Source: a virus. Taken from it: a DNA stretch of 39,909 nt. The first letter of the stretch is position 1; every line of letters starts with the position of its first letter. Below, piece after piece: positions 11,753 to 36,293 of this stretch. Both the position numbers and the translations under genes were made by a program. Location: UHGV virus genome UHGV-1354231, one strand, 5' to 3'. The notes beneath the pieces are model-generated. The model was not told the origin of the DNA and did not search any database. It saw only the letters and a program-made list of their open reading frames with translations.

Positions 11753-12086
11753 GCCTGAAGTTTTTAACTGGATCCCCCGTGAGGGGATGGAGACGACACG
11801 AAAGCCATCAGTTATTACGGTAAAGTTTGGTGACGGATATGAACAGAGACGGGCTGGTGGTCTGAATGCGGATCTGAAAACGTTTAAACCGGTATTTCGT
11901 GTCACAGATGAATATTCCCGTGCCGCGCTGGACAGTTTTTTATCCCGTCATGCCGGGATTCGTGCTTTTTTGTGGCGTCCGCCAAAACACAACAGGACTG
12001 TCCGGGTTGTCTGCAGGGAGTGGAGCATTTCGGATAATGCCATGTATACCGATTTTAACTGTACCTTTGAAGAGGTCACTCACTGA
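11745..12086 (+). CDS. Minor tail protein M
   Basis: GTG at 11745 with GGAGGA SD; sequence resembles lambda gpM as recalled. Confidence 0.8.
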   Translation: MPEPEVFNWIPREGMETTRKPSVITVKFGDGYEQRRAGGLNADLKTFKPVFRVTDEYSRAALDSFLSRHAGIRAFLWRPPKHNRTVRVVCREWSISDNAMYTDFNCTFEEVTH

Positions 12087-20616: not shown

Positions 20617-20904
20617 ATGGATATCACGTCGATACTTCATGCGCTTTGTGCCGTAGCGGTGCAGGTACTGGCTGGTCTTTTTACCGGAAACTGGGCTTAC
20701 GGGGCGATAGCCGGTTGTACGTTCTTCATTGCTCGTGAACATACCCAGGCAGAATATCGCTGGATTGAAATGTTCGGGCATGGCAAGCGAATGAATATGC
20801 CGTGGTGGGGCGGTTTTGATCCGCGCGCGTGGGATGTAGCAAGCCTGATGGATTTTGCTGTGCCGGTGGTGGCGTGTCTGCTGATCTGGATGTTGATCCG
20901 TTAA
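20617..20904 (+). CDS. Hypothetical small membrane protein (two predicted TM segments)
   Basis: 95-aa ORF with AAGGA SD; hydrophobic N- and C-terminal stretches; no family recognised. Confidence 0.45.
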   Translation: MDITSILHALCAVAVQVLAGLFTGNWAYGAIAGCTFFIAREHTQAEYRWIEMFGHGKRMNMPWWGGFDPRAWDVASLMDFAVPVVACLLIWMLIR

Positions 20905-21144
20905 ATATAAAAGCCGCAGTAACTTGCCATGATAGGATACTGCGGCTGGCTGGTTAACTTTCGATAGTGCGAGTATTGAATGATTTCCAGCCGTTACTGA
21001 TTTTATATAACGGCAGTGGAATTATTCAACACACAGGCAAAACACAGGCAAAACGGAATAAGCTGAGAAAAAAAGCGTGCTTTCCCAATCTGGGGCAAAT
21101 CACGTCTGAATGACACCTGAAAACAGGTGGTGGACTCAAGAAGG

Positions 21145-21155
21145 CTTGGAATATT
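21145..21155 (+). repeat. Putative Int arm-type site (CTTGGAATATT), left arm
   Basis: Exact copy of the motif repeated at 21374 and 21387. Confidence 0.55.
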
Positions 21156-21171
21156 CTTCTTTAATGTTATG

Positions 21172-21184
21172 TAATTCATTGATT
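21172..21184 (-). promoter_or_regulatory. IHF-like site (AATCAATGAATTA fits WATCAANNNNTTR)
   Basis: Consensus match on the minus strand between the two left-arm repeats. Confidence 0.35.
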
Positions 21185-21206
21185 TTTCGTGTACGATTTT
21201 AAGACA

Positions 21207-21217
21207 TTTATTCCAAG
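21207..21217 (-). repeat. Putative Int arm-type site, inverted copy (CTTGGAATAAA)
   Basis: 9 of 11 match to the arm motif in inverse orientation. Confidence 0.45.
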
Positions 21218-21256
21218 AAAAATTTTTAACTCTTTGATTTTTCTACTCTGTATCAT

Positions 21257-21318
21257 CGGTCTCGAAAACCGGAGTGGGGGCAACTCCACCGGGGGTTCAA
21301 ATCCCCCTCTCTCCGCCA
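21257..21318 (+). other. 3' ~62 nt of a tRNA-Ser(CGA) gene (anticodon stem to CCA); att core, not a complete tRNA
   Basis: CGGTCTCGAAAACCGGAG...GGGGGTTCAAATCCCCCTCTCTCCGCCA matches the enterobacterial serU-type tRNA 3' portion as recalled; no 5' acceptor/D-arm upstream. Confidence 0.75.
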
Positions 21319-21363
21319 AAATTCAATCACTTACACATCATTAAGTCAGTGACAAAAATCACA

Positions 21364-21397
21364 CTTGGAATTACTTGGAATATTTTCTTGGAATATT
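21364..21397 (+). repeat. Three tandem arm-type sites (CTTGGAAT(T/A)TT) overlapping the int 3' end
   Basis: Copies at 21364-21371, 21374-21384, 21387-21397. Confidence 0.6.
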
Positions 21398-22396
21398 TTC
21401 AGGTAACGGGACATCAAGTGTTGGTGAAACTTTAACCTTCCTGTCATAGATTAGCACTTGCCCTTCGGTTTTGTGACCAGAGAAAAGTTGCTTATCCCGG
21501 CTGCTTCCTTCATAGTCTGAAATTCCTTTCGCCTTCAGATCATGAAAGGTGAAGTCGGTTAAAATACCTGAAATTTTGCCTGCGCGATTTCTTGCATCTA
21601 CCCACATTTCGTTAAAGCCTTTGTACATATATCGGTTGCCGTATTGATTGCTGATCACATAGGCAGATTTTGGCAACTGTTTTGCTTTTTCGATCGCTGC
21701 CTGTAATCGTGGACTCCATGCTTTTATCTGTTTTTTTCCGGTTTTCCCTTGCTGGATGAATATCCCGTCGTTTCCAATCTGTTCCCATTTCAGCGATAAC
21801 ACATCGGAAACCCTCGCTGCACACAGATAGGCAATTTCCATTGCGATAAAAACAGGAAGAGGTGCAACGCTTAATACTGCCTGGTATTCTTTGTCGGTTA
21901 CATATCGTTCGCGGTTTTTGGCCTTGAATTTACTTACACCTGCACATGGGTTAGCCTTCACGTACCCTCGCTCATACCCCCAACTGTAAACACGGGACAT
22001 ACTGCTTTTTTCATGGTTGGCTTGCGTTTTACTCTGCTCCCCTCTTTTGTCCATGTATCGACGGATGTGTTCTGGTTTTATGGAATCCGCTGGTACCTTA
22101 CCGAATACGGCAAGCAACTTTTTTTGATGTTGCAGATAATCTTTTTGTGTTCTTGGACTAAGGTCACTGTAATAGGCGCTGGCGAGGAATTTTTCCCACA
22201 AGCGACCGAATGTCATTGCACGATCGCGATTATTTACAGTTTCCTCATACTTTTTCCATAAAGCAGCTAAACCATCCTTGATGGCGGTTAGTGTGACAGA
22301 TTCTCTGGATGTTGGTTTCCATACATAACTATATTTATTTGGGTATACATTTGGAGGTAATTTTTCGTGTTCAGGATTTTTCCTTCGTCTTCCCAT
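21371..22396 (-). CDS. int: Tyrosine integrase (lambda Int family)
   Basis: 341 aa; N-terminal MGRRR arm-binding-type start; FSGHK and HDLKAKG-like catalytic-region motifs; adjacent to att. Confidence 0.9.
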   Translation of the reverse strand: MGRRRKNPEHEKLPPNVYPNKYSYVWKPTSRESVTLTAIKDGLAALWKKYEETVNNRDRAMTFGRLWEKFLASAYYSDLSPRTQKDYLQHQKKLLAVFGKVPADSIKPEHIRRYMDKRGEQSKTQANHEKSSMSRVYSWGYERGYVKANPCAGVSKFKAKNRERYVTDKEYQAVLSVAPLPVFIAMEIAYLCAARVSDVLSLKWEQIGNDGIFIQQGKTGKKQIKAWSPRLQAAIEKAKQLPKSAYVISNQYGNRYMYKGFNEMWVDARNRAGKISGILTDFTFHDLKAKGISDYEGSSRDKQLFSGHKTEGQVLIYDRKVKVSPTLDVPLPENIPRKYSK

Positions 22397-22599
22397 CAGA
22401 TCGCACCAAAATTCGGCTCTACCTCGCGTGGTGGTAAAGTTTTATTGCAGGTAAATAGATCCCGGCTGACAATCGGTTTGCCACTACGATTGGTATAGAA
22501 CGGAAGCCCGTTTTCCATTAACCATTTTCGCTGGTGGCTTGCATATTTGCAGCCCGTTAATATTAGCAATTCATCTTCGGTTAAAAATAAGCTGCTCAT
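22396..22599 (-). CDS. xis: Excisionase-like protein
   Basis: 67-aa ORF overlapping the int start by 1 nt; typical int-xis arrangement. Confidence 0.6.
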   Translation of the reverse strand: MSSLFLTEDELLILTGCKYASHQRKWLMENGLPFYTNRSGKPIVSRDLFTCNKTLPPREVEPNFGAI

Positions 22600-22657: not shown

Positions 22658-25084
22658 TTAAAAATCAGCCTGACTCGGGATCAGTTTTTGCCAGATAGCT
22701 GAAACGTATTTTGCCTGGTAACGAGCGTCATCAAGTGCATTATGGCGCTCACCTTCGAATGGGATAGCAGTTCTGGCATCGAAGTCTATGGCTTTCCCCA
22801 GCTCAACGATTGTGCGTACATCGCGATCGTTGCAGTAGCGCCACGGGCAGGGGATACCCTGTCGTTCGTATGAACGGCGTAAAATCACGTTGTCGAAGTT
22901 GGCCCCATTACCCCAGACCTGAACAAAAAATTCACCGGAGTTTTCGTCGATAAATTCCCGCAATTGCAGTAGTGCATCATCTAACGGGATTTCATCGGTC
23001 ATAATGGCAGACTGCGCCTCACGTGATTGCTTCAGCCACCATTTAATGACGTCACGATCAATGACTCCGCCAGCAGTATCCAGATCGATGGTCTTGCTAA
23101 ATTCCGGTCCCATATCTCCGGTTTGTGGATCGAAAAATATTGCGCCTATTGAGATAATCGGGGCATCGGGATTTTTTCCCATGGTTTCAAGGTCGATCAT
23201 CAGATGAATCCCCGCTCTGCTGGTGGATGTGAGCTTATGATGACCATTCACCTTAATTAAGGGATCTGTCGCCTCGCCAGTTTTATTATCGCTGGCGTGA
23301 TGCTGATTGCCGCCAGGGTTCTCCTTGTGTGGATGTTCAGCGCCTCCCATTTCCTCCGGATCATTTTCCTGAACTTCAACCTGATTCTCTTCATCGAATG
23401 TTTCCTGGTATGTTGCGTCGCCCATCACCGCGCCACAATCAGGGCAGTTGTCGCCACCGCTCTGACCACAGGCGGTGCAGACTTTTTCCGGTTCCTGTTG
23501 CGCTACTGGTTTGGATTGTTTCGTTTCTGGCTCGTTTTGTAACGCATTTGGGCTGTTTTGTTCCGCTTTTTGGTCGTTCCGTTCCGATTCATGCTGGTTC
23601 TGGTTCACAGAATCGCGAGTCTGGATCCCCTTGACCCATTTCGGATCATTAGGGTCGCTAATCCCCTCAACAAATTCACCACGCGATACAGCAAGTAACT
23701 TATCGGCGTCAGGCTGGCTGATATTGGCTGCCTGCATAATTTTGTTTACTTCGTCAGCGGTGACTTTTACTTGGTTAGCGGAACTCACCTGCGACTGAGC
23801 GTTCTGGCAATGTTCAGTTGTATCCGGTTCCATTGTTTCAGTTGTTGCCTGTTCACCTGCCATTGCGTCAGATGGTTGTGGTTTTTCTTCCTCTGTTTCA
23901 CGTTCAGTAACCACCTCGCGGTTAATTTCTTCCAGGATATCTTTTTCCGGCGTATGCCGGGCAGCTGTGAGAGTTTCCTTGCTGGGGTTCTCGTGATCAG
24001 TTTCCGTCAAATAGGCGTTGATATACCCCTGAAGGCGTCCCGGGTAGTGATAAAATTCAGGGTGTGCGCTTCGGATAAGTGCAAAAATAGCGGCGCGGGA
24101 ATAGTCCAGAATACCCGGGGTTGCACGAAGTGCTGCGGACCATTCTTTGAACGGACTTTCTTTTTTTAGGACTACTTCTTTTGCGCGACGATAAACGCTG
24201 CCCGGAATTTCATAAATATTAAAATCCATCGGAAGTGTGGCTGCTGCAATCTCCACATCCAGTGTGTCGAGGGTGTGTACTAAATTCGGATTGCGATCGG
24301 TTTTGTTCCCACCGCCAGCATTAGCACCGGAAGCCGTGCGGGTGATGCGTGAAACACGATTTCCTTTCATCCACTCTTTTGTCAGCAGACCCCGATCAAT
24401 GTAGTCAGCGTCCAGGTATGCTTCGAAAAAAGCAGTTATTAGTCCCAGGTCTGAATTACCAGGATTAGGGAAAACTTTGTCAGTGTCACGAACCAGTTTG
24501 TGGAGGTCGCGAATCTCCAGCGAGTCGAGCAGACTGGTTTTATGCGAAATAGCCAGAGCAGTAACAGCCGGTAGTTCTTCAGCCCGTGCAATGTATAATG
24601 CCTGGAGTTCGTCGCGTGAAACGTGCGTTACTGGTTTTTCGCTGCCGTGTTGAGCAAGCCAACGAATGGGCAGTTCCTGACCGGAGACAGGCAGAAGCAT
24701 GCTCTCCTCAATCTCAGTCATGTCTTCGCCGTTGATGTTGGTATTGTCAGTGCTGGCTGGTTTGTCCTGAACAGAGGGGGAAGGGCCGATAAATGTCATT
24801 GTGATGCCATCTTTCCCGCCTTTTTCATAGCGGTTGCAGAATTCAGTATCAAACACGCCTTCTGGCGGAAGGTCGTCAACAACGGGCAAATTGACGCGGA
24901 CGGGTTTTTTAAAGTCGTCTTCATCATAATCGTTGTCATCCATTGCGGTAATGCAGCGGGAGATTGCAACAGATAATTTTTTTGCTGTAGTCCAGTAAAA
25001 ACCACCTTTAATTCCCAGGCGTTTTCTTACTTTGTCATTTTTTGCTTCGCAATATAGTGCAAATTCTTCTTTATCAGTGCTCAT
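22658..25084 (-). CDS. RecE-like prophage exonuclease: RecE-type N-terminal region and zinc ribbon fused to a DnaQ-like DEDDh 3'-5' exonuclease domain
   Basis: Long stretch resembling E. coli RecE N-terminal region as recalled; CxxC...CxxC ribbon; C-terminal MIDLETMG, FDNVIL and HNALDDA exo motifs. Confidence 0.7.
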   Translation of the reverse strand: MSTDKEEFALYCEAKNDKVRKRLGIKGGFYWTTAKKLSVAISRCITAMDDNDYDEDDFKKPVRVNLPVVDDLPPEGVFDTEFCNRYEKGGKDGITMTFIGPSPSVQDKPASTDNTNINGEDMTEIEESMLLPVSGQELPIRWLAQHGSEKPVTHVSRDELQALYIARAEELPAVTALAISHKTSLLDSLEIRDLHKLVRDTDKVFPNPGNSDLGLITAFFEAYLDADYIDRGLLTKEWMKGNRVSRITRTASGANAGGGNKTDRNPNLVHTLDTLDVEIAAATLPMDFNIYEIPGSVYRRAKEVVLKKESPFKEWSAALRATPGILDYSRAAIFALIRSAHPEFYHYPGRLQGYINAYLTETDHENPSKETLTAARHTPEKDILEEINREVVTERETEEEKPQPSDAMAGEQATTETMEPDTTEHCQNAQSQVSSANQVKVTADEVNKIMQAANISQPDADKLLAVSRGEFVEGISDPNDPKWVKGIQTRDSVNQNQHESERNDQKAEQNSPNALQNEPETKQSKPVAQQEPEKVCTACGQSGGDNCPDCGAVMGDATYQETFDEENQVEVQENDPEEMGGAEHPHKENPGGNQHHASDNKTGEATDPLIKVNGHHKLTSTSRAGIHLMIDLETMGKNPDAPIISIGAIFFDPQTGDMGPEFSKTIDLDTAGGVIDRDVIKWWLKQSREAQSAIMTDEIPLDDALLQLREFIDENSGEFFVQVWGNGANFDNVILRRSYERQGIPCPWRYCNDRDVRTIVELGKAIDFDARTAIPFEGERHNALDDARYQAKYVSAIWQKLIPSQADF

Positions 25085-25177
25085 TATTGGTAAACCTCAT
25101 CACAGATTTAAGGGTGAACAAATCTCTGCCATTGCTGACATATAAGAATGAAACTGGATATTTATTACGGTGCTGTT

Positions 25178-25369
25178 TTAAAATCCTGCCGGGATTTCGT
25201 TATTATCCTGGTGAATAACTTTATCGACCGGATAACAGTTGCCTGGAATTTTCTGTTCGGTTGCTGCTGCCATACATTCCTGCATTGTTCTGTGAACACT
25301 GACTGCAATATCAACTGGCTCTCCGGAAACAAGAAAAACCGTCAGAATAAGTGCAAATACTGGATTCAT
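25178..25369 (-). CDS. Small secreted / lipoprotein-like protein (63 aa)
   Basis: Internal ATG at 25369 with AAGGA SD; N-terminal hydrophobic signal-like segment; two Cys. Confidence 0.4.
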   Translation of the reverse strand: MNPVFALILTVFLVSGEPVDIAVSVHRTMQECMAAATEQKIPGNCYPVDKVIHQDNNEIPAGF

Positions 25370-25554
25370 TGTGCACATCCTTTTGGCATCAGACGTAAAC
25401 GGGCCAGCATTGAAACAATGCATACTTTATTTAATAACTCCCGTTCGTGTTTTCTTTTGTTAATGGCATCTTCAGTAAATACAGGATTACTGATAGTGAC
25501 ACCAATTTCAAAACAACCTTCAGACGTATTAACGTTTGGTAATAACGTTTTCAT
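25366..25554 (-). CDS. Hypothetical 62-aa protein
   Basis: Internal ATG of ORF 25366..25659; coupled to the downstream small gene. Confidence 0.3.
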   Translation of the reverse strand: MKTLLPNVNTSEGCFEIGVTISNPVFTEDAINKRKHERELLNKVCIVSMLARLRLMPKGCAQ

Positions 25555-26121
25555 TATCGCGCCCTCAACAATGAGTTTTGTGATGCGGTGCCTGGTGCCT
25601 CCAGGTGACGTTAACCAGTTAACAATTAACGCCGGATACAGAGAATCCACCCATAACACTGTTTTTGGTTTTAACTGTTCCGCGTGCGCTTAGCCGCATT
25701 CACCGCATCACAAAATTCACTTTAAAAAGGGCGGCAGAGCAGTCACGGAGTAAAACTGATACCGCCAAACGTCACCAGAAAATTGATAACAGAGGGCGTT
25801 GCAGCGGGGTTGTCACTTAAGCGTATGGTCAACCTGACAACCCGGTGTCCTCAACGGGGAAGGAATAACCCCGCCATACTTACCGCCGCGCCATTTCGCG
25901 GAGTGCCACAACTGGAAGCGCACGGTCGACGAAAATTTAACGACAGGCTATCTATGAACCAGCTACCTCGCCGTGCGCTTTCGCGTTATGGTCTGACTTT
26001 TCATGGAAATATCCTTTCAGTAAACTGTCAGTGCCGGATGCTCACCCGTGTCCGGCGCACGCACTCCACCTCACCCGTGGAGAACTCCTTAATTACCAAC
26101 CTTAGCTTCGTTGGTTAGCTA

Positions 26122-26340
26122 TTAACGCGGGTATGTAATCATTCTGGCAATGCTTAATGCCGCTGCTTTTTCCAGCCTGGTGATATCCTGCTCCAGAGCG
26201 GACAGATTTTCAGCCTGCTTAGCCCTGGCTTCATTGGCCCATTTCAGATCCTGCGCTGCATTAATTTTCTGGCGCATCCACTCATAAAGTTCATCATCGG
26301 TATAGTCTGGCGCGATGATGACGGGTTCTCGTTTCTGCAT
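26122..26340 (-). CDS. Hypothetical 72-aa early-left protein
   Basis: ORF in the leftward operon; no family recognised. Confidence 0.45.
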   Translation of the reverse strand: MQKREPVIIAPDYTDDELYEWMRQKINAAQDLKWANEARAKQAENLSALEQDITRLEKAAALSIARMITYPR

Positions 26341-26369
26341 ACTGATTCCTCGCGGTGCTGCTTCGCTTA

Positions 26370-26498
26370 TCAGCCGTTAGATTTTGCCGAGCTGGAAAGC
26401 GCCTGTTTAAACTCACTGAAGCTGAGAGCTTCTTCGCCTTCGGCAAGGCCTTCGAAGTATTCTTCGTAAGCCTTTTCCATGATTGTGTCGAAATCCAT
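26370..26498 (-). CDS. Small acidic 42-aa protein (below the ORF-track cutoff)
   Basis: Hand translation MDFDTIMEKAYEEYFEGLAEGEEALSFSEFKQALSSSAKSNG; GGTGAG SD; start abuts the upstream gene stop. Confidence 0.4.
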   Translation of the reverse strand: MDFDTIMEKAYEEYFEGLAEGEEALSFSEFKQALSSSAKSNG

Positions 26499-26499
26499 A

Positions 26500-26736
26500 T
26501 CACTCACCTGAGTTTCTTTCCAGCCAGCGACGGGCACCATTTTCGGTTTTAAACGTTTTGCTTTTGGTATACGTCATCGCGGTGAATGTGCCGTCCTGGT
26601 TGGGAAACACGCCGTACACCAGAGATTCGTTGTTGCCAAGATCGATAGTATCCATGTTGACCTCATTTCCCCTTAACGCCGGGGTAGCGGAACAAAAACC
26701 TGCTGCATAGTTATTAAAGTTGAACCCTGCCGTCAT
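26500..26736 (-). CDS. Hypothetical protein, first gene of the leftward operon (real start may be the internal ATG at 26655)
   Basis: 78-aa ORF downstream of the putative pL. Confidence 0.45.
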   Translation of the reverse strand: MTAGFNFNNYAAGFCSATPALRGNEVNMDTIDLGNNESLVYGVFPNQDGTFTAMTYTKSKTFKTENGARRWLERNSGE

Positions 26737-26836
26737 GTTCTTACGCCTCGGGCTGGCTACTTAACCCCTGACCACTGCCTGGTAACTCGAAGTATTGCCC
26801 GGCGTTCTGTGGGGCGGGGTGGGTTGGTATGCAATA

Positions 26837-26865
26837 AATCTAAAAGTATTTAGTTTTATAGTCAA
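26837..26865 (-). promoter_or_regulatory. Putative pL promoter (TTGACT-17-TAGATT) overlapped by an OL-like operator (AATCTAAAAGTATTTAGTTT, 26837-26856)
   Basis: Palindrome matches the OR site at 27644-27663 in 16 of 20 positions; -35/-10 hexamers with 17-bp spacer on the minus strand. Confidence 0.45.
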
Positions 26866-26883
26866 GGGGAATCTAAATTAATT

Positions 26884-26909
26884 TAAAAAAAAGGTCGGCA
26901 TAACCGACC
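26884..26909 (-). terminator. Rho-independent terminator for the repressor gene
   Basis: GGTCGG-cataa-CCGACC hairpin followed on the minus strand by an 8-9 T run, just after the cI stop. Confidence 0.6.
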
Positions 26910-26932
26910 TTAAGTTCAAGGACATGGCAGGG

Positions 26933-27580
26933 TTATAGGTTGAACTGCACACCTTTTGCTACGGCAACAATTTTACACTCTGGCGTAAGCAAGGATGATT
27001 GATAGCGCGGATTGAGAGGGCTTAAATACACAAGTTTTCCATCAATAACTAATTTTTTTATAGTCATAGACGGTTCATTTGTAAGTGGATCTGGAACTAT
27101 TACAGCGACGATACTGCCATTTTTATAACTCTCTCCTGGTCTTAGGATCACAGTGGCACCAACCGGGATACTTGGCGACCCTGAGGGGTTATGCATAGTG
27201 TCATCAGGCATTGAAACGGCAAAATCACCTTCCACTACATCAAAGAATGTGGTGATCCTATCGACATTTCCCATTGTTTTCTCTCCTTCTAAGATTAGGA
27301 AAGAAATCGCGTCACCCCACGAAAAGTAGGGGATCTTGGTGCCTGGATTGCTCTGCACAAAAGATAGTTCAGGAGACGATACTCCATACAGGAGATAGGA
27401 CTCAGTAGTTCCTAATGCCTGGGCTAACTTACTTAGAGCTTTGCTGCCGGGTTCGTTTAGATCTTTCTCCCAGTACCCTATAGTAACCCCAGTCACGCCT
27501 GAAAGCTTACCCAGTTCTACTTGGGTGAGTCCCTTATCTTTTCTGAGTTTCTTAAGCCTGATGCCAAGGCTTTCCATCAT
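26933..27580 (-). CDS. CI-type phage repressor (HTH_XRE N-terminal domain + LexA/S24 peptidase C-terminal domain)
   Basis: 215-aa ORF divergent from a cro-like gene; HTH motif LTQVELGKLSGVTGVTIGYWE; S24-like C-terminal domain. Confidence 0.9.
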   Translation of the reverse strand: MMESLGIRLKKLRKDKGLTQVELGKLSGVTGVTIGYWEKDLNEPGSKALSKLAQALGTTESYLLYGVSSPELSFVQSNPGTKIPYFSWGDAISFLILEGEKTMGNVDRITTFFDVVEGDFAVSMPDDTMHNPSGSPSIPVGATVILRPGESYKNGSIVAVIVPDPLTNEPSMTIKKLVIDGKLVYLSPLNPRYQSSLLTPECKIVAVAKGVQFNL

Positions 27581-27609
27581 TTTCTCCCGCGAGTTGAATA
27601 TAAATTATT

Positions 27610-27663
27610 TTAGATTGCATTGACCTAAAAAAAATTATCCTGTAATCTAAAAATACTTAGATT
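27610..27663 (+). promoter_or_regulatory. OR-like operator/promoter region: PR candidate TTGACC(27620)-17-TAATCT(27643) with TTAGATT/AATCTAA half-sites
   Basis: Imperfect palindrome AATCTAAAAATACTTAGATT overlapping the -10; extra half-site at 27610-27616. Confidence 0.5.
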
Positions 27664-27676
27664 TTAGGAGAGTGAA

Positions 27677-27904
27677 ATGCGAGTTGATGAACTTGTTCAG
27701 TTTTTTGGCTCTGTTCAGAGGGTCGCTGATTTTTATGGGATAACCCGCGAAGCTATTTACATGTGGCGTAAGCGCCCCGGTGAAATAGTTCCGAAAGGGA
27801 GGGCTGCGGAAGCTGCTGCATACTCCAAGGGAAAATTATCTTTGAACCCAGAGCTTTACAAAAAGAAGGATACCACCCGGGACAAAAGGAAGAGTGATTC
27901 ATGA
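27677..27904 (+). CDS. Cro-like HTH regulator (YdaS-like)
   Basis: 75-aa ORF divergent from cI with GGAGAG SD. Confidence 0.65.
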   Translation: MRVDELVQFFGSVQRVADFYGITREAIYMWRKRPGEIVPKGRAAEAAAYSKGKLSLNPELYKKKDTTRDKRKSDS

Positions 27905-28326
27905 AAATCAAACATGAACATATCCGCATGGCGATGAATGCTTGGGCGCATCCGGACGGCGAAAAAGTACCGGCTGCGAAAATTACCAAAGCGTATTTCG
28001 AGCTGGGAATGACGTTCCCGGAACTGTATGACGACAGCCATCCGGAAGCCCTGGCTCGCAATACTCAGAAAATTTTCCGCTGGGTGGAGAAAGACACCCC
28101 TGATGCGGTTAAAAAAATTCAGGCGTTGTTACCAGCTATCGAAAAAGCAATGCCACCTCTGCTGGTGGCCCGAATGCGCAGCCATAGCTCAGCCTATTTT
28201 CGGGAACTAGTGGAGACGCGGGCACGACTGGTGAGAGACGCTGATGATTTTGTCGCAGTGGCGATCGCTGGTTTCAACCAGATGAATCGTGGTGGCCCTG
28301 CAGGAAATATTGTGGCTGTGCATTGA
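27901..28326 (+). CDS. YdaT-like protein (CII-position regulator)
   Basis: 141-aa ORF overlapping the cro-like stop; Rac-type ydaS-ydaT arrangement as recalled. Confidence 0.5.
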   Translation: MKIKHEHIRMAMNAWAHPDGEKVPAAKITKAYFELGMTFPELYDDSHPEALARNTQKIFRWVEKDTPDAVKKIQALLPAIEKAMPPLLVARMRSHSSAYFRELVETRARLVRDADDFVAVAIAGFNQMNRGGPAGNIVAVH

Positions 28327-28391
28327 CTCGCAATATTCATACCGGATCATTTCCGGCAATTTGTGAGTAAAAAGATTCGGTATCAAAAGAG

Positions 28392-29468
28392 GTGAGTATG
28401 GCTAACGCCTGGCTCAGATTATGGCATGACATGCCAAATGACCCTAAGTGGCGAACAATTGCCAGGGTGTCAGGGCAGCCAATTGCAACAGTGATGGCAG
28501 TGTATATCCACCTATTGGTAAGCGCGTCACGAAATGTCACGCGAGGTCACATTGATGTCACGACAGAAGATTTGGCAAGTGCGCTCGACGTGACAGAAGA
28601 GGTAATTGATTCGATTTTGCTGACGATGCAGGGGCGGGTACTTGATGGTGATTTAATCACTGGATGGGAAAAACGCCAGGTGCTGAAAGAGGACAACGGC
28701 AATATTTCGCAAACCGCAAAATCTCCTGCAGAGCGCAAGAGGGCGCAGCGAGAGAGGGAAAGAAAGCGGGAACAAAATGGCGATTGTCACGGCGCGTCAC
28801 GAAATGTCACGCACATGTCACGACGAGTCACGACAGATAAAGATACAGATAAAGATACAGATCAAGAAGATCAAAACACTATGGTCCATGGCGTAAAAAA
28901 CGCCACGAACCAGGCAGGGGATGTTCAGACCGTCAATCCTGGTCAGCCAGCAGGCACGACACCGGAAGCCGATTCAGCGTATGCGCTGAAAGCCGATTCG
29001 GGCGCTGTGCAGCAGGTGATGACCGCAAGGCCGGAGCAATCACACCAACTGCAGCAGCCTGAAGTCGATTCCGCCATTCAGCGGGAAGCCGATCGGGTAG
29101 TCCCGGAAAACACCGGGCAGCCTGTGGGACGAGTGGATTATCCGGATGTGTTCGAACAGGTCTGGCGGGAATACCCGTTGCGTGCTGGGGCAAACCCGAA
29201 GAAATCCGCTTTCAGTGCTTGGAAGGCCAGATTACGCGAGGGGGTGTCACCAGAGGCCATGCTGGATGGCGTGAGGCGTTACGCAAGATACCTGGCGGCT
29301 ACCGGGAAAACGGGAACGGAATTTGTTCAGCGAGCGACGACGTTTTTTGGACCGGACCGGAATTTTGAAAACCCCTGGCTGCTCCCGGTAAGCGGCACGA
29401 ACAACCAGCGTTGTGTGAATCATATTTCTGAACCGGATACCGAAATTCCACCGGGCTTCAGGGGGTAA
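28392..29468 (+). CDS. Replication initiator (YdaU-like), probably starting at ATG 28398
   Basis: 358-aa ORF after the cII-position gene; contains two iteron clusters. Confidence 0.65.
   Translation: MSMANAWLRLWHDMPNDPKWRTIARVSGQPIATVMAVYIHLLVSASRNVTRGHIDVTTEDLASALDVTEEVIDSILLTMQGRVLDGDLITGWEKRQVLKEDNGNISQTAKSPAERKRAQRERERKREQNGDCHGASRNVTHMSRRVTTDKDTDKDTDQEDQNTMVHGVKNATNQAGDVQTVNPGQPAGTTPEADSAYALKADSGAVQQVMTARPEQSHQLQQPEVDSAIQREADRVVPENTGQPVGRVDYPDVFEQVWREYPLRAGANPKKSAFSAWKARLREGVSPEAMLDGVRRYARYLAATGKTGTEFVQRATTFFGPDRNFENPWLLPVSGTNNQRCVNHISEPDTEIPPGFRG
28521..28565 (+). repeat. Iteron cluster 1: four GTCAC(G/A) repeats at 10-11 bp spacing inside the initiator gene
   Basis: GTCACG at 28526, 28536, 28557 and GTCACA at 28546. 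Confidence 0.6.
28781..28876 (+). repeat. Iteron cluster 2 (five GTCACG repeats at 10-11 bp spacing) followed by A-rich GATAAAGATACA tandem repeats; candidate replication origin
   Basis: GTCACG at 28786, 28796, 28806, 28817, 28827; then GATAAAGATACAGATAAAGATACAGATCAAGAAGATCAAAAC. Confidence 0.6.
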
Positions 29469-29508
29469 GTGTTTATTTCAGGTCATGAGGTAATTTTCAG
29501 GAGGACTT

Positions 29509-29934
29509 GTGGCAAAAGTATTTACACAAGAAGAGCGGGAAAAAATTAAGAGGCAGGTTGTTGAACTCGTGCGCCAGAGCGGGCGCGAGACGTTACGACA
29601 ACTGGAAGCGAAAACAGGTGCGACAAGATATCTGATGAGTGTTCTCGCCAGAGAGCTGGTTGCCAGTGGCGATGTATACAATTCTGGCTACGGGTTATTC
29701 CCGTCTGAACAGGATCGTAAGGACTGGCAAAACGCCCGCAAAAAACTCTCAAGGGCAAAGCTGAAGAAAAAAACACCTGTGGTTGATCCGGACCTTATCT
29801 GGTCATTACCTGACGGAGAAATACGTCGCTACGACAGTCGCCTAAACATAATCTGTCGCGAGTGCCGGAAGAGCGAAGTTATGCAGCGCGTGCTGGCGTT
29901 TTATCAGGGGAATTTTCAGGAGGTGGTGCGGTGA
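29509..29934 (+). CDS. Hypothetical 141-aa protein
   Basis: GTG start with CAGGAGGA SD; no family recognised. Confidence 0.5.
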   Translation: MAKVFTQEEREKIKRQVVELVRQSGRETLRQLEAKTGATRYLMSVLARELVASGDVYNSGYGLFPSEQDRKDWQNARKKLSRAKLKKKTPVVDPDLIWSLPDGEIRRYDSRLNIICRECRKSEVMQRVLAFYQGNFQEVVR

Positions 29935-30197
29935 GTGAATCAAAATGCAGGGTTAATGGCAATCAGATAGAACCATGTGCGGCACTGGCAAAATCCCTTG
30001 AGCATGATGCTGAATACACGACGCGAAAAGGTCTGCTGATATACAAAATCTGGAATGAGAGTTTAACTCGCGGCCCTGATTTGGTGATGTTGCGTTCCGG
30101 TGAATTTTCTAAATCACCAGTTCGGGTTTCATTTTGCCCGTTCTGTGGTGAAAGTCTGAAAACGTGGGAAGCGGAGGCAACCAGTGAGCAAAATTAA
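29931..30197 (+). CDS. Hypothetical small protein with C-terminal Cys cluster (CPFCGE)
   Basis: GTG at 29931 with CAGGAGG SD, overlapping the upstream stop (GTGA). Confidence 0.45.
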   Translation: MSESKCRVNGNQIEPCAALAKSLEHDAEYTTRKGLLIYKIWNESLTRGPDLVMLRSGEFSKSPVRVSFCPFCGESLKTWEAEATSEQN

Positions 30198-30369
30198 CTA
30201 TCAAGAACTGCGCGAGGCGGCGGAACAGGCAACGCAAGATGAATGGGTAGCATATATTTTGCCGGGTCATAACGGCATTTATCCTGCGCGCACGTCTGAG
30301 GGTAGGCATTGTGCGGATACTTTATTGACTGGCCTGGCGTCTGTCAGGGGCGGGAGAGCATCAACATGA
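30184..30369 (+). pseudogene. Ea22-like N-terminal fragment; frame breaks before the Ea22-like body at 30366-30872
   Basis: N-terminus MSKINYQELREAAEQ and DNA at 30184-30230 closely parallel 30869-30915; ORF stops after 61 codons. Confidence 0.4.
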
Positions 30370-30872
30370 GCATCAGAACCTACGCAGTGAATTGCAATGA
30401 CGCATGGCTAAACACCGAAGGTGATGACATCTCCGGCTCATACGTTAAGTACAAAGACCATCAGGAAGTGGTTGCCGCTCTTGAGGCCAAGTGCGCGGCG
30501 CTGGCAGCGGAGAATGCGGGAATAAAGTCTGCAATTCCAGAATCACGGGATATTGAAGATGACAATGACAATATGGATGACGTATCTCTCGCGGAAGACT
30601 TCGGGTTCAATCATGCAATAGAACGGATGAGGAGACAGATACCTGAAACACCAACCACTGATGCTTTCCTGGCTGAAGTCCGGGCGCAGGGGGTGGATGC
30701 TGCTATAGAAGCTGCAAAAAATCTGGTGGCCCAAGAATATGAGTATAAGGATTTCAAAGCGGCGCAGAGTGATTGCTGTATGTACCCTGGTTCAGACCTG
30801 GTAGGGAAGGTTGAAATGACTGAGTGGTTAGTTGACTTTGCTGCCCAGCTTCGCAAAGGAGGCAACCAGTGA
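30366..30872 (+). CDS. Ea22-like protein body (168 aa from ATG 30366)
   Basis: Coiled-coil Ala-rich region and DAFLAEVRAQGVD-type segment typical of Ea22-like proteins as recalled. Confidence 0.5.
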   Translation: MSIRTYAVNCNDAWLNTEGDDISGSYVKYKDHQEVVAALEAKCAALAAENAGIKSAIPESRDIEDDNDNMDDVSLAEDFGFNHAIERMRRQIPETPTTDAFLAEVRAQGVDAAIEAAKNLVAQEYEYKDFKAAQSDCCMYPGSDLVGKVEMTEWLVDFAAQLRKGGNQ

Positions 30873-32128
30873 GCGAAATTAATTACCAGGCACTGCGTGA
30901 GGTGGCGGAACGTGCAATTCCAGCAATGGAACGCCTGTTAATGTTGCCAGCTGATGATGACTTGTTAAGTGAACAGGAACTTAAAGATTACGGTGTGGAT
31001 ATTGATGCGCTCAACGCCTTCAAATTTCTGACCGGACCAGAAACCGTGCTGGCACTGCTGGATGAACGGGAAAGAAACCTGCAATACATCAAAAGCCGCG
31101 ATCAGGAGAACGAGGATATTGCGCTAACGGTAGGGAAGCTGAGAGTTGAGCTTGAGGAAGTAAAACAACACGCTGAAGAATTATCCGAAACCAAGGCTGT
31201 TCGTAACCAATGGCGGCCAGATATTTGCCCAATAACCGGACGTGCATTTTTCATGTGGATTGAGCATCCAACATTGGGGAATGTGCCGACATATGGTGGC
31301 CCATTAGATAGTTACACCATTCCAACAAAGGACGGTGACGGTGAGTTTTCATGTGAGCGTTACGATCATGATTTTGGCGGTTGGGTAGAAAGCGAATGTC
31401 TTGGGTTATATCTGATTGATGATAGAGAACAATGCAGGGTCTACGAACTGGAGGAACGCGTTAAGGAACTGGATGCTCGGGAAATATCGCTCCCGGAACG
31501 TAGCAGCATGCTTCATCGAACAGATTTTCACGATGATTACCAAACGGTAATGGCATACAAAGTTTCTGAAGTCATCGCTGCAATCCGCGCCGCCATGCTT
31601 CAGTCCGGAAACTTTCGGGAAAACAAGAATTCGTCAACCAATAATTTTCGGGAAATCGCGGAAACGTCAACCAACTATCCGGCAATTCCTAGTGAGGTGT
31701 TGTCCGCAATCCTGAAGGTTGCCAGGATTCGTGCCGATTTCGATGATTTTGACGGTGACAGGCGAGGTATCGGTGATTGTCTGGATGAGGCTGAGCAAGA
31801 GCTTATCGTTACCATTAACAAATATGCCAGTCAGTTGGCAGCAGAACCTATAGCGCCTAATGACGTTCGAGAGCAGACAGCCATTCCACAAGTTCCGGCA
31901 ACTCCGGATGGTTGGATAAGCTGTAGTGAGCGAATGCCTGAGAACATTCCCGGAAGTTGTAAAGAGTATCTGGTGTTTGATGGGCTTAATAATAAAGTTC
32001 ATCACGATTACTGGGTTGTCCCTGATGGAGACAGTGCGCCAGTTGCGTCGTTCTGGAATCATTACGGGGCACATGTAACCCACTGGATGCCGCTACCAGA
32101 ACCGCCGCAGGAGGTTAACCGTGGCTAA
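30869..32128 (+). CDS. Ea22-like protein with DUF551-type C-terminus
   Basis: N-terminus MSEINYQALREVAE; C-terminal HWMPLPEPP motif. Confidence 0.65.
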   Translation: MSEINYQALREVAERAIPAMERLLMLPADDDLLSEQELKDYGVDIDALNAFKFLTGPETVLALLDERERNLQYIKSRDQENEDIALTVGKLRVELEEVKQHAEELSETKAVRNQWRPDICPITGRAFFMWIEHPTLGNVPTYGGPLDSYTIPTKDGDGEFSCERYDHDFGGWVESECLGLYLIDDREQCRVYELEERVKELDAREISLPERSSMLHRTDFHDDYQTVMAYKVSEVIAAIRAAMLQSGNFRENKNSSTNNFREIAETSTNYPAIPSEVLSAILKVARIRADFDDFDGDRRGIGDCLDEAEQELIVTINKYASQLAAEPIAPNDVREQTAIPQVPATPDGWISCSERMPENIPGSCKEYLVFDGLNNKVHHDYWVVPDGDSAPVASFWNHYGAHVTHWMPLPEPPQEVNRG

Positions 32129-32402
32129 CCTGCAACTTGCCGTTAAAGGTGAATACTTCGATGCCATGATTCGAGGAGAGAAAACGGAAGAGTATCGCCT
32201 GTGTAATGACTACTGGAAAAAGCGCCTCGTTAACCGTAAGTATGACCGCCTGATTATCACAAAGGGATATCCGAAGCGCGACGACTTCAGTCGAAGAATT
32301 GACGTCCCGTATGAAGGGTATGAAATCAAGACAATCACACATCCGCACTTCGGCGATAAACCGGTAAAGGTGTACGCGATAAAGGTGAATATTGATGGCT
32401 AA
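32121..32402 (+). CDS. ASCH / DUF3850-like small protein
   Basis: 93-aa ORF; N-terminal GEYFDAMIRGEKTEEYRLCND pattern resembles ASCH-like PUA fold proteins as recalled. Confidence 0.45.
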   Translation: MANLQLAVKGEYFDAMIRGEKTEEYRLCNDYWKKRLVNRKYDRLIITKGYPKRDDFSRRIDVPYEGYEIKTITHPHFGDKPVKVYAIKVNIDG

Positions 32403-32733
32403 ATCAGCAGCAGAGCGCAAAGCCGCTCAGAGAGCCAGACAAGCTGAATCCGGTGTACGTAAGCTGGAGATTGTGCTTGATGCTCAGGAAATTGAAATGC
32501 TGGAGCGGAACTGCGCCGCCCGGCGCCCTGGTCGAGATCCCTATGAAATGGCCGAGTACATCGCGCTGCTGATCCGCCAGGATGATGCCCGGGTGCGCGG
32601 GCGTATAAAATCGATCAGCAGAAAACGTTGCGGTAAGTGCGGCGAGAGAGTTCCAGTTAATTCATGCCCGTGTAATGGTGACTCGCAATGCTGGGTGACT
32701 AAAGGCTGGCATGAAACGAAATTAATAGTGTGA
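32392..32733 (+). CDS. Hypothetical basic protein with C-terminal zinc-ribbon-like Cys cluster (candidate late regulator)
   Basis: 113-aa ORF immediately upstream of a terminator and the second terminase genes. Confidence 0.4.
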   Translation: MMAKSAAERKAAQRARQAESGVRKLEIVLDAQEIEMLERNCAARRPGRDPYEMAEYIALLIRQDDARVRGRIKSISRKRCGKCGERVPVNSCPCNGDSQCWVTKGWHETKLIV

Positions 32734-32741
32734 CATGTCAC
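32730..32741. repeat. Perfect 12-bp palindrome GTGACATGTCAC (copy 1)
   Basis: Exact palindrome overlapping the stop codon of the 32392-32733 gene; identical copy at 34996-35007. Confidence 0.85.
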
Positions 32742-32782
32742 GAGTAGATTATGCATGATGAATTTGATGGGTTTTGAATACT

Positions 32783-32808
32783 GCCGCCAACTATGGCGGC
32801 TTTATTTT
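32783..32808 (+). terminator. Rho-independent terminator upstream of the second small terminase
   Basis: GCCGCC-aactat-GGCGGC followed by TTTATTTT. Confidence 0.65.
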
Positions 32809-32815
32809 GCATGGT

Positions 32816-32844
32816 ACTATTACCACAACGGTAACTATTACCAC
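32816..32844 (+). repeat. Direct repeat ACTATTACCAC x2 (18-bp period) upstream of the second small terminase
   Basis: Copies at 32816-32826 and 32834-32844. Confidence 0.7.
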
Positions 32845-32851
32845 GGTGGTT

Positions 32852-33292
32852 ATGATGCCTGCTGAACCTAAAACCTATAAACGCAAATCAACGCAATTTA
32901 AGCCACTAACAGCAATGCAGGAGGCTTATTGCCAGTCATACATCAAAACGCCTGAAAACCAGACTCAGGCAGCGATTAACGCAGGATTCTCCCCAAATAC
33001 AGCGGCAGTTAAAGCCAGTGTCATGATGCGCGATGAACGCATTCAAAAACGGATTGCCGAGTTGATGGAGGAGCGCAACAAACGAATGCGCGTCAGTGCT
33101 GATTACGTTCTCATGCGCCTGGTGGAGATCGACCAGATGGACGTGATCGACATCCTCAACGACGATGGGAGCCTTAAACCAATCCGTGAGTGGCCGAAAA
33201 TCTGGCGCACTACGCTTAGTGGCTTTGATCTGTCATCGACCATCATGAACATGAACGAGGATTCGATAGAGACAATCCTACAAAAAAATTAA
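32852..33292 (+). CDS. Terminase small subunit of the second packaging module; probably truncated by a frameshift in an A7 tract
   Basis: HTH-like segment typical of small terminases; start taken at ATGATG 32852 after the terminator rather than ORF start 32774. Confidence 0.6.
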
Positions 33293-33445
33293 ATGGCCTG
33301 ACAAGGTGAAGAACCTTGAGCTGATTGGTAAGCATGTTGATGTCAACGCGTTCAAAGAACGTCTGGATGTTAATGTGAATGTGACAATTGCTGATCGCAT
33401 AGCAGCAGCCAGGAAGCGACTCAAAGAACGTCAGGATGGTAATCA

Positions 33446-34921
33446 GTGACAGATACAGCGTTATCTCCTGAAGAGCAGTTGATCGAGGATATTGCAGGGT
33501 TCACTCACGATCCGCTTGGCTATGCCCTCTATGCGTTCCCGTGGGGGGAAGAGGGGACTGAACTGGCACATGCTACCGGCCCACGTCAGTGGCAGGCTGA
33601 TGCGTTCCGAGAGATACGTGATCACCTGCAGAATCCAGAGACGCGCTATCAGCCGCTTATGCTGGCACGTGCTTCGGGTCACGGTATTGGTAAATCCGCA
33701 TTCATCTCAATGCTGATCAACTGGGGCATGTCCACTTGCGAGGATTGTAAGGTCGTGGTGACCGCCAACACCGACAACCAGCTACGAACGAAGACCTGGC
33801 CGGAAATTATCAAGTGGTCGAACCTTGCTATCACGAAAGACTGGTTTACCTGTACCGCTACCGCGATGTACAGCAATGACCCAGGGCACGACAAGCGATG
33901 GCGGGCTGACGCAATACCCTGGTCTGAGCACAACACTGAGGCATTCGCCGGACTACACAACGAGCGCAAACGCATCATCGTGGTATTCGATGAAGCGTCG
34001 AACATTGCCGATCTGGTGTGGGAGGTAGCAGAGGGTGCGCTGACGGACGAAGACACCGAAATCATCTGGGTGGCGTTCGGGAACCCGACGCGTAACACCG
34101 GGCGTTTCCGTGAATGTTTCCGCAAGTACAAACACCGCTGGAAGTGTGCGCAGATTGACAGCCGGACGGTGGAAGGCACTAACAAACAGCAGTTGCAGAA
34201 ATGGGTTGATGACTACGGGGAAGACAGCGACTTCGTTAAAATCCGTGTGCGCGGCATATTCCCTGATGCATCTGAATTGCAGTTTATCCCTACCGGTCTT
34301 ACTGACGAGGCAATGAAACGGGTGGTAACCGCTGCGCAGGTTGCACATGCTCCGGTGATAATCGGTGTTGACCCGGCATATTCAGGCGTTGATGACGCGG
34401 TGATATACCTGCGGCAGGGGCTACACAGTAAGGTGCTGTGGACTGGCAACAAGACTACCGACGATCTGATTATGGCGAAGCGTATCGCTGATTTTGAAGA
34501 CCTGTATCAGGCTGACGCAGTGTTCATCGACTTTGGTTACGGTACCGGTCTGAAGTCAATCGGTGACGGTTGGGGGCGCACATGGCAACTTGTTCCGTTC
34601 GGTGGCGCGTCTACTGACCCGCAGATGCTCAACAAGCGTGGGGAGATGTTCAACTCATGCAAGACATGGCTGAGGCTGGGCGGGATGCTTGATGACCAGG
34701 AAACAGCGGACGACCTGTCGGCGGCAGAGTACAAAGTTCGAGTGGACGGTAAAATCGTTATCGAACCGAAGGAAGATATCAAGGAGCGGCTTGGGCGTTC
34801 GCCGGGTAAAGGCGATGCGCTATTGCTGACGTTTGCTTTCCCTGTGTCGAAGCGTCTGCGAATTCCAGGTCAGCAGAACCAGCAAGGCAAGGCCATTACA
34901 GATTACGATCCCTATGCTTAA
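33446..34921 (+). CDS. Terminase large subunit (second packaging module)
   Basis: 491 aa; Walker A-like GHGIGKS, Walker B-like VVFDEAS, C-terminal RNaseH-like nuclease region. Confidence 0.85.
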
Positions 34922-34971
34922 TCCGCTGGTGGGGATAATGTCGTTGATATCCTCTGGTGAGGATAAAACAA

Positions 34972-34998
34972 AGCCAGCTCATAGGCTGGCTGTTTGTG
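34972..34998. terminator. Hairpin between convergent genes (possible bidirectional terminator)
   Basis: GCCAGC-tcatag-GCTGGC flanked by T-rich sequence on the + strand and A-rich upstream; followed by the palindrome. Confidence 0.5.
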
Positions 34999-35007
34999 AC
35001 ATGTCAC
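34996..35007. repeat. Perfect 12-bp palindrome GTGACATGTCAC (copy 2)
   Basis: Identical to copy 1; position fixed using ORF 34957..35148 as coordinate anchor. Confidence 0.85.
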
Positions 35008-35011
35008 GGTG

Positions 35012-35367
35012 TTATTGCTCGCTTAACTTCTGCTTCAGCAAGTAACCTTCAAGCATCCAGATTTTGTTTACAGCATTCTGCCTGGCAATCTTCCGACCAA
35101 TTTCTGCATCAAAGTTTTCCGGGCTTGCACATGCGCTCTCTCCGGTGACGGTGAAGCCATTCTTCAGCACCAGTACGCAGAAAGTAAGGAGGTCTGTAGA
35201 TTTATGCGCTGTCCACGTATCGCCAACGCCCATATTGGCAGCACGAATGCCGTCATAAGCAGTAAAGAAATGCTCTTCAAGAATGATGCTTTCGATATAT
35301 TGAGGCGTAACTCGCGGAGCGGTTTTGCCTTTCTCAACGATTCTTTTTCGATTTGCTGGTCGTTCAT
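35012..35367 (-). pseudogene. Unknown moron gene with a good start at 35367 (frame A, 67 aa) running into a longer open frame ending at 35012; apparently frame-disrupted
   Basis: GGTGAG SD before ATG 35367; second frame open for ~115 codons but its first ATG (35233) has no SD. Confidence 0.35.
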
Positions 35368-35566
35368 AATCTCACCTTAAAAAAAATGCCCGTCGAACCG
35401 GGCGAACTGGAAGCAATGAGTTATGCCTTCCGTGGCTGTACGGGTTTACAGCATGAAGTCATCGCAATGGCGTCCTGCTGTAAAAAGGGCGGTGATAGTC
35501 CTTCAAGGGAAACTGTCACCGCCAAGCACCTGGAACTTCTGGCATCACGGTCCTTAGGCGTGATTC

Positions 35567-35644
35567 TGGCGTGGCATGCAGGATTCGAACCTGACAACCA
35601 ACCGCTTAGAAGGCGGTTGCTCTGTCCAACTGAGCTAATGCCAC
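35567..35644 (-). tRNA. tRNA-Arg (anticodon UCU), phage-borne; T-stem reads with a one-base bulge
   Basis: Hand-folded cloverleaf: acceptor GTGGCAT/ATGCCAC, anticodon arm ACCGC-CTTCTAA-GCGGT, T-loop TTCGAAT, 3' GCCA; resembles argU as recalled. Confidence 0.7.
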
Positions 35645-36279: not shown

Positions 36280-36293
36280 CCGGAGTCATTGAA

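Follow-up and report, generated by a model that had tools for sequence, protein, structure and literature searches.

The region 21141-21397 of the viral DNA under study (hereafter the window, that is, the whole stretch of 39,909 nucleotides) is in all probability a complete lambda-type attP of the serU lambdoid phages, present here as the internal junction of two prophages arranged head-to-tail. The left half of the site, comprising P1, H1, P2, H2 and the core, would be the attR of an upstream siphovirus-type prophage, and the right half, comprising the core, H' and P'1-3 followed by int and xis, would be the attL of the downstream prophage. The site adds one more well-resolved example to the lambda-type attP class at a known integration hot spot; it is well supported, and its structure is an expected and ordinary one. 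The serU gene is a recognised prophage site (PMC8767318, PMC13188871, PMC7067040), into which the phage ST64B has been reported to insert (PMC10100743). The elements of the site and of its surroundings are the following, with the distances counted from the anticodon-loop centre, G21264:

1-20904, plus strand: late region of the HK97-like siphovirus prophage on the left, from a 5'-truncated terS to a small ORF at 20617-20904, with the late genes in the order terS, terL, portal, protease, capsid, tape measure, J, Lom, tail fibre.
21145-21155, plus strand: arm-type site P1, CTTGGAATATT, at -119 to -109.
21172-21184, minus strand: predicted IHF site H1, an exact consensus match, AATCAATGAATTA, at -92 to -80.
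21207-21217, minus strand: inverted arm-type site P2, CTTGGAATAAA on the minus strand, at -57 to -47.
21227-21239, minus strand: predicted IHF site H2, an exact consensus match, AATCAAAGAGTTA, at -37 to -25.
21257-21318, plus strand: common core of 62 nt, the 3' part of the serU tRNA-Ser(CGA) from the anticodon stem to CCA, as defined by alignment.
21257-21260 and 21268-21272: the two halves of the anticodon stem within the core.
21261-21267: the 7-nt anticodon loop CTCGAAA, the presumed overlap region.
21321-21333, plus strand: predicted site H', IHF-like with one mismatch, ATTCAATCACTTA, at +57 to +69.
21364-21374, plus strand: arm-type site P'1, CTTGGAATTAC, from +100, overlapping the int stop codon.
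21374-21384, plus strand: arm-type site P'2, CTTGGAATATT, from +110, within the last int codons.
21387-21397, plus strand: arm-type site P'3, CTTGGAATATT, from +123, within the last int codons.
21371-22396, minus strand: int, encoding a lambda-type tyrosine integrase of 341 aa with an N-terminal arm-binding domain.
22396-22599, minus strand: excisionase-like gene of 67 aa, a DUF4224 protein (Pfam PF13986, E = 1.9e-15).
22658-39909: remainder of the right prophage, with a RecE-like exonuclease and the DicF RNA on the minus strand, then a cI-like repressor, a cro-like ORF, a YdaT-like gene, a replication gene and an Ea22-like gene.
Within this remainder, up to ~38 kb: the right packaging module, with a Terminase_2 terS at 32774, terL at 33446, a tRNA-Arg on the minus strand, a T7-type portal at 36294 and a protease.

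The arm-type sites are defined by a short repeat, distinct from the core sequence, which flanks the core on both sides, two of its copies being on the P side and three on the P' side. The original prediction of five flanking copies holds in number, the exact 11-mer CTTGGAATATT being found at three places (21145, 21374 and 21387), while the two other copies (21207-21217 on the minus strand and 21364-21374) have only CTTGGAAT(A) in common with it. It was also right in placing the three right-hand copies over the 3' end of int: the stop codon at 21371-21373 lies at the 3' edge of P'1 and adjoins P'2, with P'2 and P'3 in the last codons. Such words could in principle have arisen by chance or from coding constraints at the int 3' end and in an A+T-rich spacer, with no protein-binding role, given that two of the five CTTGGAAT copies sit within int codons and that the region is indeed A+T-rich (75% in the P arm). 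This explanation is, however, hardly credible, as two copies lie in the non-coding DNA of the P arm, and five copies were reached in 0/5000 composition-matched shuffles (5000 local dinucleotide shuffles of 21141-21400, with a mean of 0.02 copies per shuffle, a maximum of 2 and 5 observed). Throughout the 39.9-kb window CTTGGAAT occurs five times, every time within 21145-21394, against an expectation of 1.5 per 39.9 kb. Besides, the position and strand of the arm sites are kept in the phages ST64B, KpF5, Chris1 and mEp390 although the word itself differs, and the arm blocks remain constant while the spacers vary: among nine distinct E. coli variants of the P arm, P1, the H1 core, P2 and the H2 core are invariant. 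Left of P1 these variants diverge completely, and the end of similarity just left of P1 places the left boundary of the site near 21141. A literature search for the arm word in a phage context found no paper printing it.

The IHF consensus WATCAANNNNTTR is matched exactly at no more than two places in the window, H1 and H2, both located in the P arm, and two matches were reached in 6 of 5000 local P-arm shuffles. The IHF match announced earlier between the left copies is the one at 21172-21184 on the minus strand, and it was confirmed; the second exact match, at 21227-21239 on the same strand, had been overlooked. The H1 core invariant among the P-arm variants is TTGAT, and H2 is part of a 17-nt direct repeat common to H1. 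At the H1 position Chris1 and KpF5 have one-mismatch IHF-like sites, and H' is found at the same position and on the same strand in Chris1, KpF5 and ST64B; a counterpart of H2 within one mismatch is absent from KpF5 and ST64B. In E. coli just downstream of serU, the sequence TATCAATGACTTA is aligned at the place of H' and fits the IHF consensus by eye. Judged from the sequence, both arms of the attachment site appear to contain IHF sites.

The alignment of the core took in the K-12 attB together with attL and attR of strain 190693, and it was found that 21257-21318 corresponds to K-12 serU from C28 (the second anticodon-stem base of serU) to CCA, except for two compensating changes in the variable-arm stem. 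Position 27 of the tRNA is mismatched to serU, and 5' of there only A+T-rich, unrelated DNA is found, which bears out the view of this element as the 3' ~62 nt of a tRNA-Ser(CGA) without the 5' half. ARAGORN, named in the original prediction as a check for a complete tRNA, detected none at the site, the sole tRNA in the window being the tRNA-Arg at 35567-35644. Similarly, Rfam at gathering score gave no tRNA at the core, its matches in the window being the tRNA-Arg and DicF only, and a relaxed Rfam search of 21100-21450 gave over the tRNA fragment only sub-threshold matches to other families. The core occurs once in the 39.9-kb window and contains the dyad CGGT-CTCGAAA-ACCG, which is the anticodon stem with its loop. 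A longer core of 77 bp, suggested by the BLAST matches of the left side that run to 21333, was rejected, because the real identity stops at CCA, 21318. The extra 15 nt past CCA (to 21333) represent a weak similarity of H' to the IHF-like host sequence.

The position of the crossover can be narrowed by the two variable-arm changes, which distinguish the phage-type from the host serU sequence at 21277 and 21288 (A>G / T>C, with the pairing kept). The phage-type variable arm was found in 66 of the 67 fetched sites with P' on the right, and the host-type one in all eight sites with E. coli DNA on the right (seven of attR type and the K-12 attB). The variable arm of the host-type core reads AGGGGCAACTCTAC. 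In all fetched sites the variable-arm type tracks the right flank, regardless of the sequence on the left side, and therefore the crossover lies 5' of 21277, within 21257-21276, that is, in the anticodon stem and loop. In tyrosine integrases that use tRNA genes, the 7-nt anticodon loop usually serves as the overlap and the stem halves as the core-type sites. The crossover range, with its putative cleavage positions, appears to fit this arrangement. Integration leaves an intact tRNA gene, since serU is regenerated with the 3' part that comes from the phage copy, and an intact tRNA-Ser is annotated at attL in both 190693 and noe1104.

The product of int contains the Phage_integrase, Phage_int_M and SAM-like domains of Pfam (catalytic and central), and its residues 1-313, with the start MGRRR..LPPN, align with residues 1-338 of lambda Int (phmmer, E = 1.2e-12). 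Counterparts of lambda R212, K235, H308, H333 and Y342 are present, and the counterpart of R311 is Lys. The suggestion that this Lys inactivates the enzyme was rejected, as it is common to the Ints of the sequenced phages KpF5, Chris1, ST64B and mEp390 and occupies the position in 80 of the 119 full-length representatives, with Arg in 37 of the 119. Likewise, the annotation of int as a pseudogene (PGAP 'frameshifted' in noe1104, 190693 and M15) was discarded, given that the 341-aa ORF retains all conserved blocks to KVKVSPTL; what was annotated as a frameshift reflects the varying number (2, 3 or 4) of 13-bp P' units within the tail, which is not conserved. The P' arm is thus a short tandem array of the 13-bp unit CTTGGAATATTTT, which also encodes the end of Int, and its copies number 2, 3 or 4 in the relatives. 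Any change of copy number alters the number of arm sites and shifts the frame of the C-terminal tail of Int, whose known forms are ...ENIPSNSKCDFCH (345 aa), ...ENIPRKYSK (341 aa) and a 360-aa form. The C-terminal tail of lambda Int modulates catalysis. One may speculate that slippage in the P' array serves as a heritable switch by which integration and excision, and hence the stability of the serU tandem arrays, are tuned, although such a role is rather improbable. The adjoining excisionase-like gene matches PHROG 1266 'excisionase' (E = 3e-21). The comparison of relatives for Xis sites gave no common motif between H1 and P2, and the scan of 20.6-22.7 kb for promoters and terminators yielded none above expectation.

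The DNA on the two sides of the site belongs to different phages. The left packaging module, at 0.1-3.7 kb, consists of a P27-family terS, terL and an HK97-type portal, and the left region as a whole is 97-98% identical to the serU prophages with attR beside yodB in ~260 complete E. coli genomes. The right late module matches a podovirus-type prophage beside guaA in strain E23. In the right prophage, dicB, cro and YdaT are named after their counterparts in noe1104 and 190693, where the homologous regions are annotated. Two unrelated packaging modules indicate two prophages rather than one permuted phage genome, and the left side matches the attR ends and the right side the attL ends of serU prophages. 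The P-arm sites suggest that the left prophage, whose int is outside the window, is of the same integrase type.

How the two arms are distributed in an ordinary lysogen is seen in strain 190693, which has a single 40-kb prophage at serU. In its attL an intact serU precedes the P' arm and int of the window (99% identical), and its attR consists of the window's P arm, the tRNA 3' part and host DNA toward yodB. Carrying both arms as attL and attR, this prophage has the junction of the window as its expected attP and would yield exactly this P-core-P' on excision. That circumstance, together with a gene order (late genes, attP, int, xis, early genes) equal to the lambda virion map, would suit the assumption that the window is one unintegrated phage genome with an ordinary attP between the tail-fibre genes and int. 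However, the assumption is very improbable in view of the two unrelated packaging modules (0.1-3.7 kb and 32.8-38 kb), the piece of a tail gene that is joined to terS at the left edge, and the INPHARED collection, in which no phage record covers at least 80% of the junction. Thus, of the two forms offered by the original prediction, a free attP or the junction of tandem prophages, the second stands, with two packaging modules and the occurrence of the junction in complete genomes in its favour, and the first does not.

The source of the window is not one of the 5,426 complete E. coli genomes searched, of which noe1104 matches best, covering 49% of the queried part of the window, 15000-39909. 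Its junction is 100% identical to 20900-21450 of the window (551 bp) and lies in an array of two prophage copies with identical gene products between serU and zinT, with the outer attL (with the intact tRNA) and the outer attR both present. The same junction was found between two different prophages in the complete genome of M15, where the junction region was examined, and at least 80% of the 551-bp junction query is present in 8 of the 5,426 complete genomes, including noe1104. The 80 loci fetched from IMG/VR contigs encoding this Int comprise 49 of attL type, 8 of P-core-P' type and two (L059 and L065) in which a P arm of heterologous sequence meets this P' precisely at the core; in all, 11 P-core-P' loci were fetched. 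No exact match to a 35-mer from the P arm and core was found in the GTDB representative genomes, and in IMG/VR the 35-mer occurs in three ordinary attR ends only.

These occurrences bear on the possibility that the junction is an assembly artefact, in which attR was joined to attL via the 62-bp core or reads from excised circles were incorporated. The core is repeated at each prophage end, and excised circles bear the true attP. An odd duplication is also present at the left edge of the window, the first 145 bases being a rearranged duplicate in which a tail-gene fragment is fused to the truncated terS, with a homopolymer length that differs between the copies, so either the array was rearranged there or the assembly is imperfect at this edge. 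Nevertheless, an artefact at the junction itself is improbable, as the junction exists in the finished genomes of M15 (with different flanking prophages), noe1104 and six further complete genomes, as well as in the 11 fetched P-core-P' loci, and the occurrence of tandem prophages at a single attB is well established (PMC8112680, PMC9934374).

The tandem junction remains the preferred reading, and its origin would be in the entry of a second phage into a lysogen with a resident serU prophage. The array may have been formed by the Int-mediated reaction at the core of attL or attR, or by homologous recombination with the resident prophage. The latter route, RecA-dependent recombination or unequal crossing-over instead of a second Int-mediated integration, is the less likely of the two but a real possibility, since int-xis-exo is 95-100% identical among these prophages, which provides kilobases of homology, and since the two copies in noe1104 encode identical products, as would be expected from unequal exchange or from integration of a dimer. 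It was discussed as an alternative for other tandem prophages too (PMC9934374). One form of it would be the recombination of the incoming phage with the near-identical int/exo region of the resident prophage. Both routes lead to the same P-core-P' sequence, so that the window is compatible with each of them; the heterologous P arms of L059 and L065, however, being joined exactly at the core, are explained more simply by site-specific integration.

In the Int-mediated reaction, the N-terminal domain of a heterobivalent Int would bind the arm sites CTTGGAATAWT, its core-binding and catalytic domains would bind the anticodon-stem dyad CGGT / ACCG, IHF would bend the DNA at H1, H2 and H', and the strands would be exchanged across the 7-nt anticodon loop. 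As to the fate of such arrays, tandem integration at a shared attB has been described and is the standard explanation for prophage clusters of E. coli (PMC8112680), and hybrid attR/attL junctions through which each constituent prophage is excised have been described (PMC9934374). In the case of prophiT36-2a/2b of M. abscessus, both prophages were found to give virions, which agrees with excision via the internal junction (PMC9934374). Tandem lambda prophages are known as packaging substrates (PMC4669245); in the array of the window, the packaging systems being different, cos-to-cos packaging from the chromosome across the junction would not be expected.

The strongest evidence comes from the related sites of the phages ST64B (Salmonella), KpF5 (Klebsiella) and Chris1 (Citrobacter), whose Ints are 58-59% identical to that of the window, share with it the motif FHDLKAKGISDYEG and are associated with a tRNA-Ser(CGA) core. 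Their arm and H' sites are within 1-3 bp of the positions in the window, the distances from the anticodon loop being about -118, -55, +57, +100, +110 and +123, and the places of P1 and of the inverted P2 are occupied in Chris1, KpF5 and ST64B by a different word. This arm word is TGAGAAAA in ST64B and KpF5 and TTGGTATA in Chris1. The N-terminal domain of Int (residues 1-58) is 34% identical between the window and KpF5, against 64% elsewhere in the protein; for Chris1, with its closer arm word, the identities are 50% and 58%, respectively. The arm repeats thus change together with Int, the divergence of the N-domain being in step with that of the arm word.

The practical value of the site is that, for a common family of E. 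coli serU prophages, which includes carriers of the Shiga-toxin and LT-II genes, it allows the arm and IHF sites, the core and the likely overlap to be mapped to the base. Such a map allows exact calling of the prophage ends and of the tandem arrays at serU. The comparison with ST64B, KpF5, Chris1 and mEp390 provides a natural example of arm words and Int N-domains that covary on a fixed scaffold, and this covariation could guide the engineering of Int specificity. The understanding of site-specific recombination as such is unchanged by the finding.

As regards known systems, the plan of the site is that of lambda attP. The lambda layout proposed in the original prediction proved correct, as each element is matched in order and strand to the annotated lambda attP record, P1(+), H1(-), P2(-), H2(-), core, H'(+) and P'1-3(+), and the four relatives agree with it. 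In lambda these elements are at -143(+) for P1, -127(-) for H1, -113(-) for P2, -49(-) for H2, +31(+) for H' and +53 to +82(+) for P'1-3. In both systems the three tandem P' sites overlap the int stop codon, int and xis directly adjoin the P' arm, and the Ints are homologous over the full length, including the N-terminal arm-binding domain. The differences are as follows. The lambda core is an intergenic one of 15 bp, whereas here a tRNA gene contributes its 3' part, in which the anticodon stem forms the dyad and the loop is the presumed overlap. The P arm is shorter (P1 at -119 vs -143 in lambda), and the gap between P2 and H2 is of 10 bp, which leaves no room there for lambda-like Xis and Fis sites. 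The P' arm lies ~47 bp farther out (P'1 at +100 vs +53). The arm word is CTTGGAATAWT and not that of lambda; the Int is 22-30% identical to lambda Int, with Lys at the place of Arg311; and the excisionase is a DUF4224 protein.

Phage mEp390 (NC_019721, annotated with a 'putative attP'), whose Int is 48% identical to that of the window, has the same succession of P1(+), P2(-), a tRNA 3' fragment and tandem P' sites overlapping the end of int; however, its core is derived from a different tRNA (probably tRNA-Leu, by eye), its arm word is TTCGCCAT and its P' copies are four. In ST64B, KpF5 and Chris1 the corresponding site is the attP in a phage genome, whereas in the window it lies inside a chromosomal array, at the junction of the two prophages. 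In this last respect the window resembles lambda dilysogens, STEC clusters and the prophages prophiT36-2a/2b of M. abscessus, in which one attB is shared and the internal P and P' arms come from different prophages. Unlike those hybrid junctions, both arms here have the same arm word, which makes the junction indistinguishable from a cognate attP.

The copy number of the 13-bp unit CTTGGAATATTTT in the P' arm, the right arm of the attachment site, which overlaps the 3' end of int (window 21364-21397), differs among otherwise near-identical prophages (L098, L099, L100, L101), and the C-terminal tail of the integrase differs with each copy-number state, as follows.

P' units and length of Int
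2 units: Int of 345 aa
3 units: Int of 341 aa (found in the window and in most relatives)
4 units: Int of 360 aa

Because the number of units alters the Int tail, int was tagged as 'frameshifted' by PGAP in the E. coli strains noe1104, 190693 and M15. Codon 288 of Int (window 21533-21535), within FHDLKAKG, encodes Lys at the counterpart of the catalytic Arg311 of lambda Int, a substitution common to the integrases of the phages ST64B, KpF5, Chris1 and mEp390; among 119 full-length Int representatives, taken at the 50%-identity cluster level, Lys was found at this position in 80 and Arg in 37.

The tRNA-Ser core of the window carries, in comparison with the host serU, a compensating pair of changes in the variable-arm stem (A>G / T>C, at 21277 and 21288); with this phage-borne part of the tRNA, lysogens therefore express a slightly altered but still base-paired tRNA-Ser. 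The host-type variable arm instead of the phage type was found in one attL (L087). The host-type serU core is also present in the phages ev099 and mEp332 (L003 and L005, respectively, 3001-3535 in both), whose integrase differs from that of the window: from the tail-fibre genes to int, they contain a P arm of the window type, this core and a stretch of E. coli chromosome, about 280 bp long, from the region downstream of serU. The segment looks like a fossil attR, the host DNA having been acquired by an ancestor.

Within the right prophage, at 30869-39909, a Rac/Qin-like early region runs straight into a podovirus-type late module via an Ea22/DUF551 gene, with neither Q nor lysis genes between the two, and the same gene order was found in a prophage adjoining guaA in strain E23; therefore, the right prophage appears to be mosaic, with parts from two types of phage. 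Two RNA genes were located in this prophage:

35567-35644, minus strand: tRNA-Arg(UCU) gene, encoded opposite to terL and the portal gene, which flank it
25729-25780, minus strand: DicF antisense RNA, full-length (76.7 bits against Rfam), in the early-left region

A tRNA-Arg also occurs at the equivalent place in the related E23 prophage, and homologous prophages carry dicB, ydfB and ydfC at the DicF-bearing early-left region.

The left edge of the window is formed by a fusion:

1-150 and 11845-11993: duplicated tail-gene segment and terS fusion

The first 145 bases duplicate 11845-11988 in a minor tail gene with 99.3% identity, the sole difference being the length of a T-run, and this copy is joined at about 146-150, through AAAA microhomology, to a terS devoid of its first ~29 codons. 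The fusion is a deletion or tandem-duplication junction within the prophage array, or else an assembly artefact.

Other arm arrangements were found as well. In the IMG/VR contigs L059 and L065, an unrelated left arm, in which the CTTGGAAT sites are absent, meets a P' arm of the window type exactly at the core (flipped-locus position 2884). Such contigs would represent phages with different integrases in tandem arrays at serU. In phage Evi (L103), whose Int shows 55% identity, the following was located:

about 600-640 and 848, flipped locus: Evi features

Compared with the window site, the tRNA-like core of Evi is oriented oppositely relative to int, and its closely spaced arm words (TATACCAA) are clustered at the side away from int, so that the arm arrangement looks inverted.
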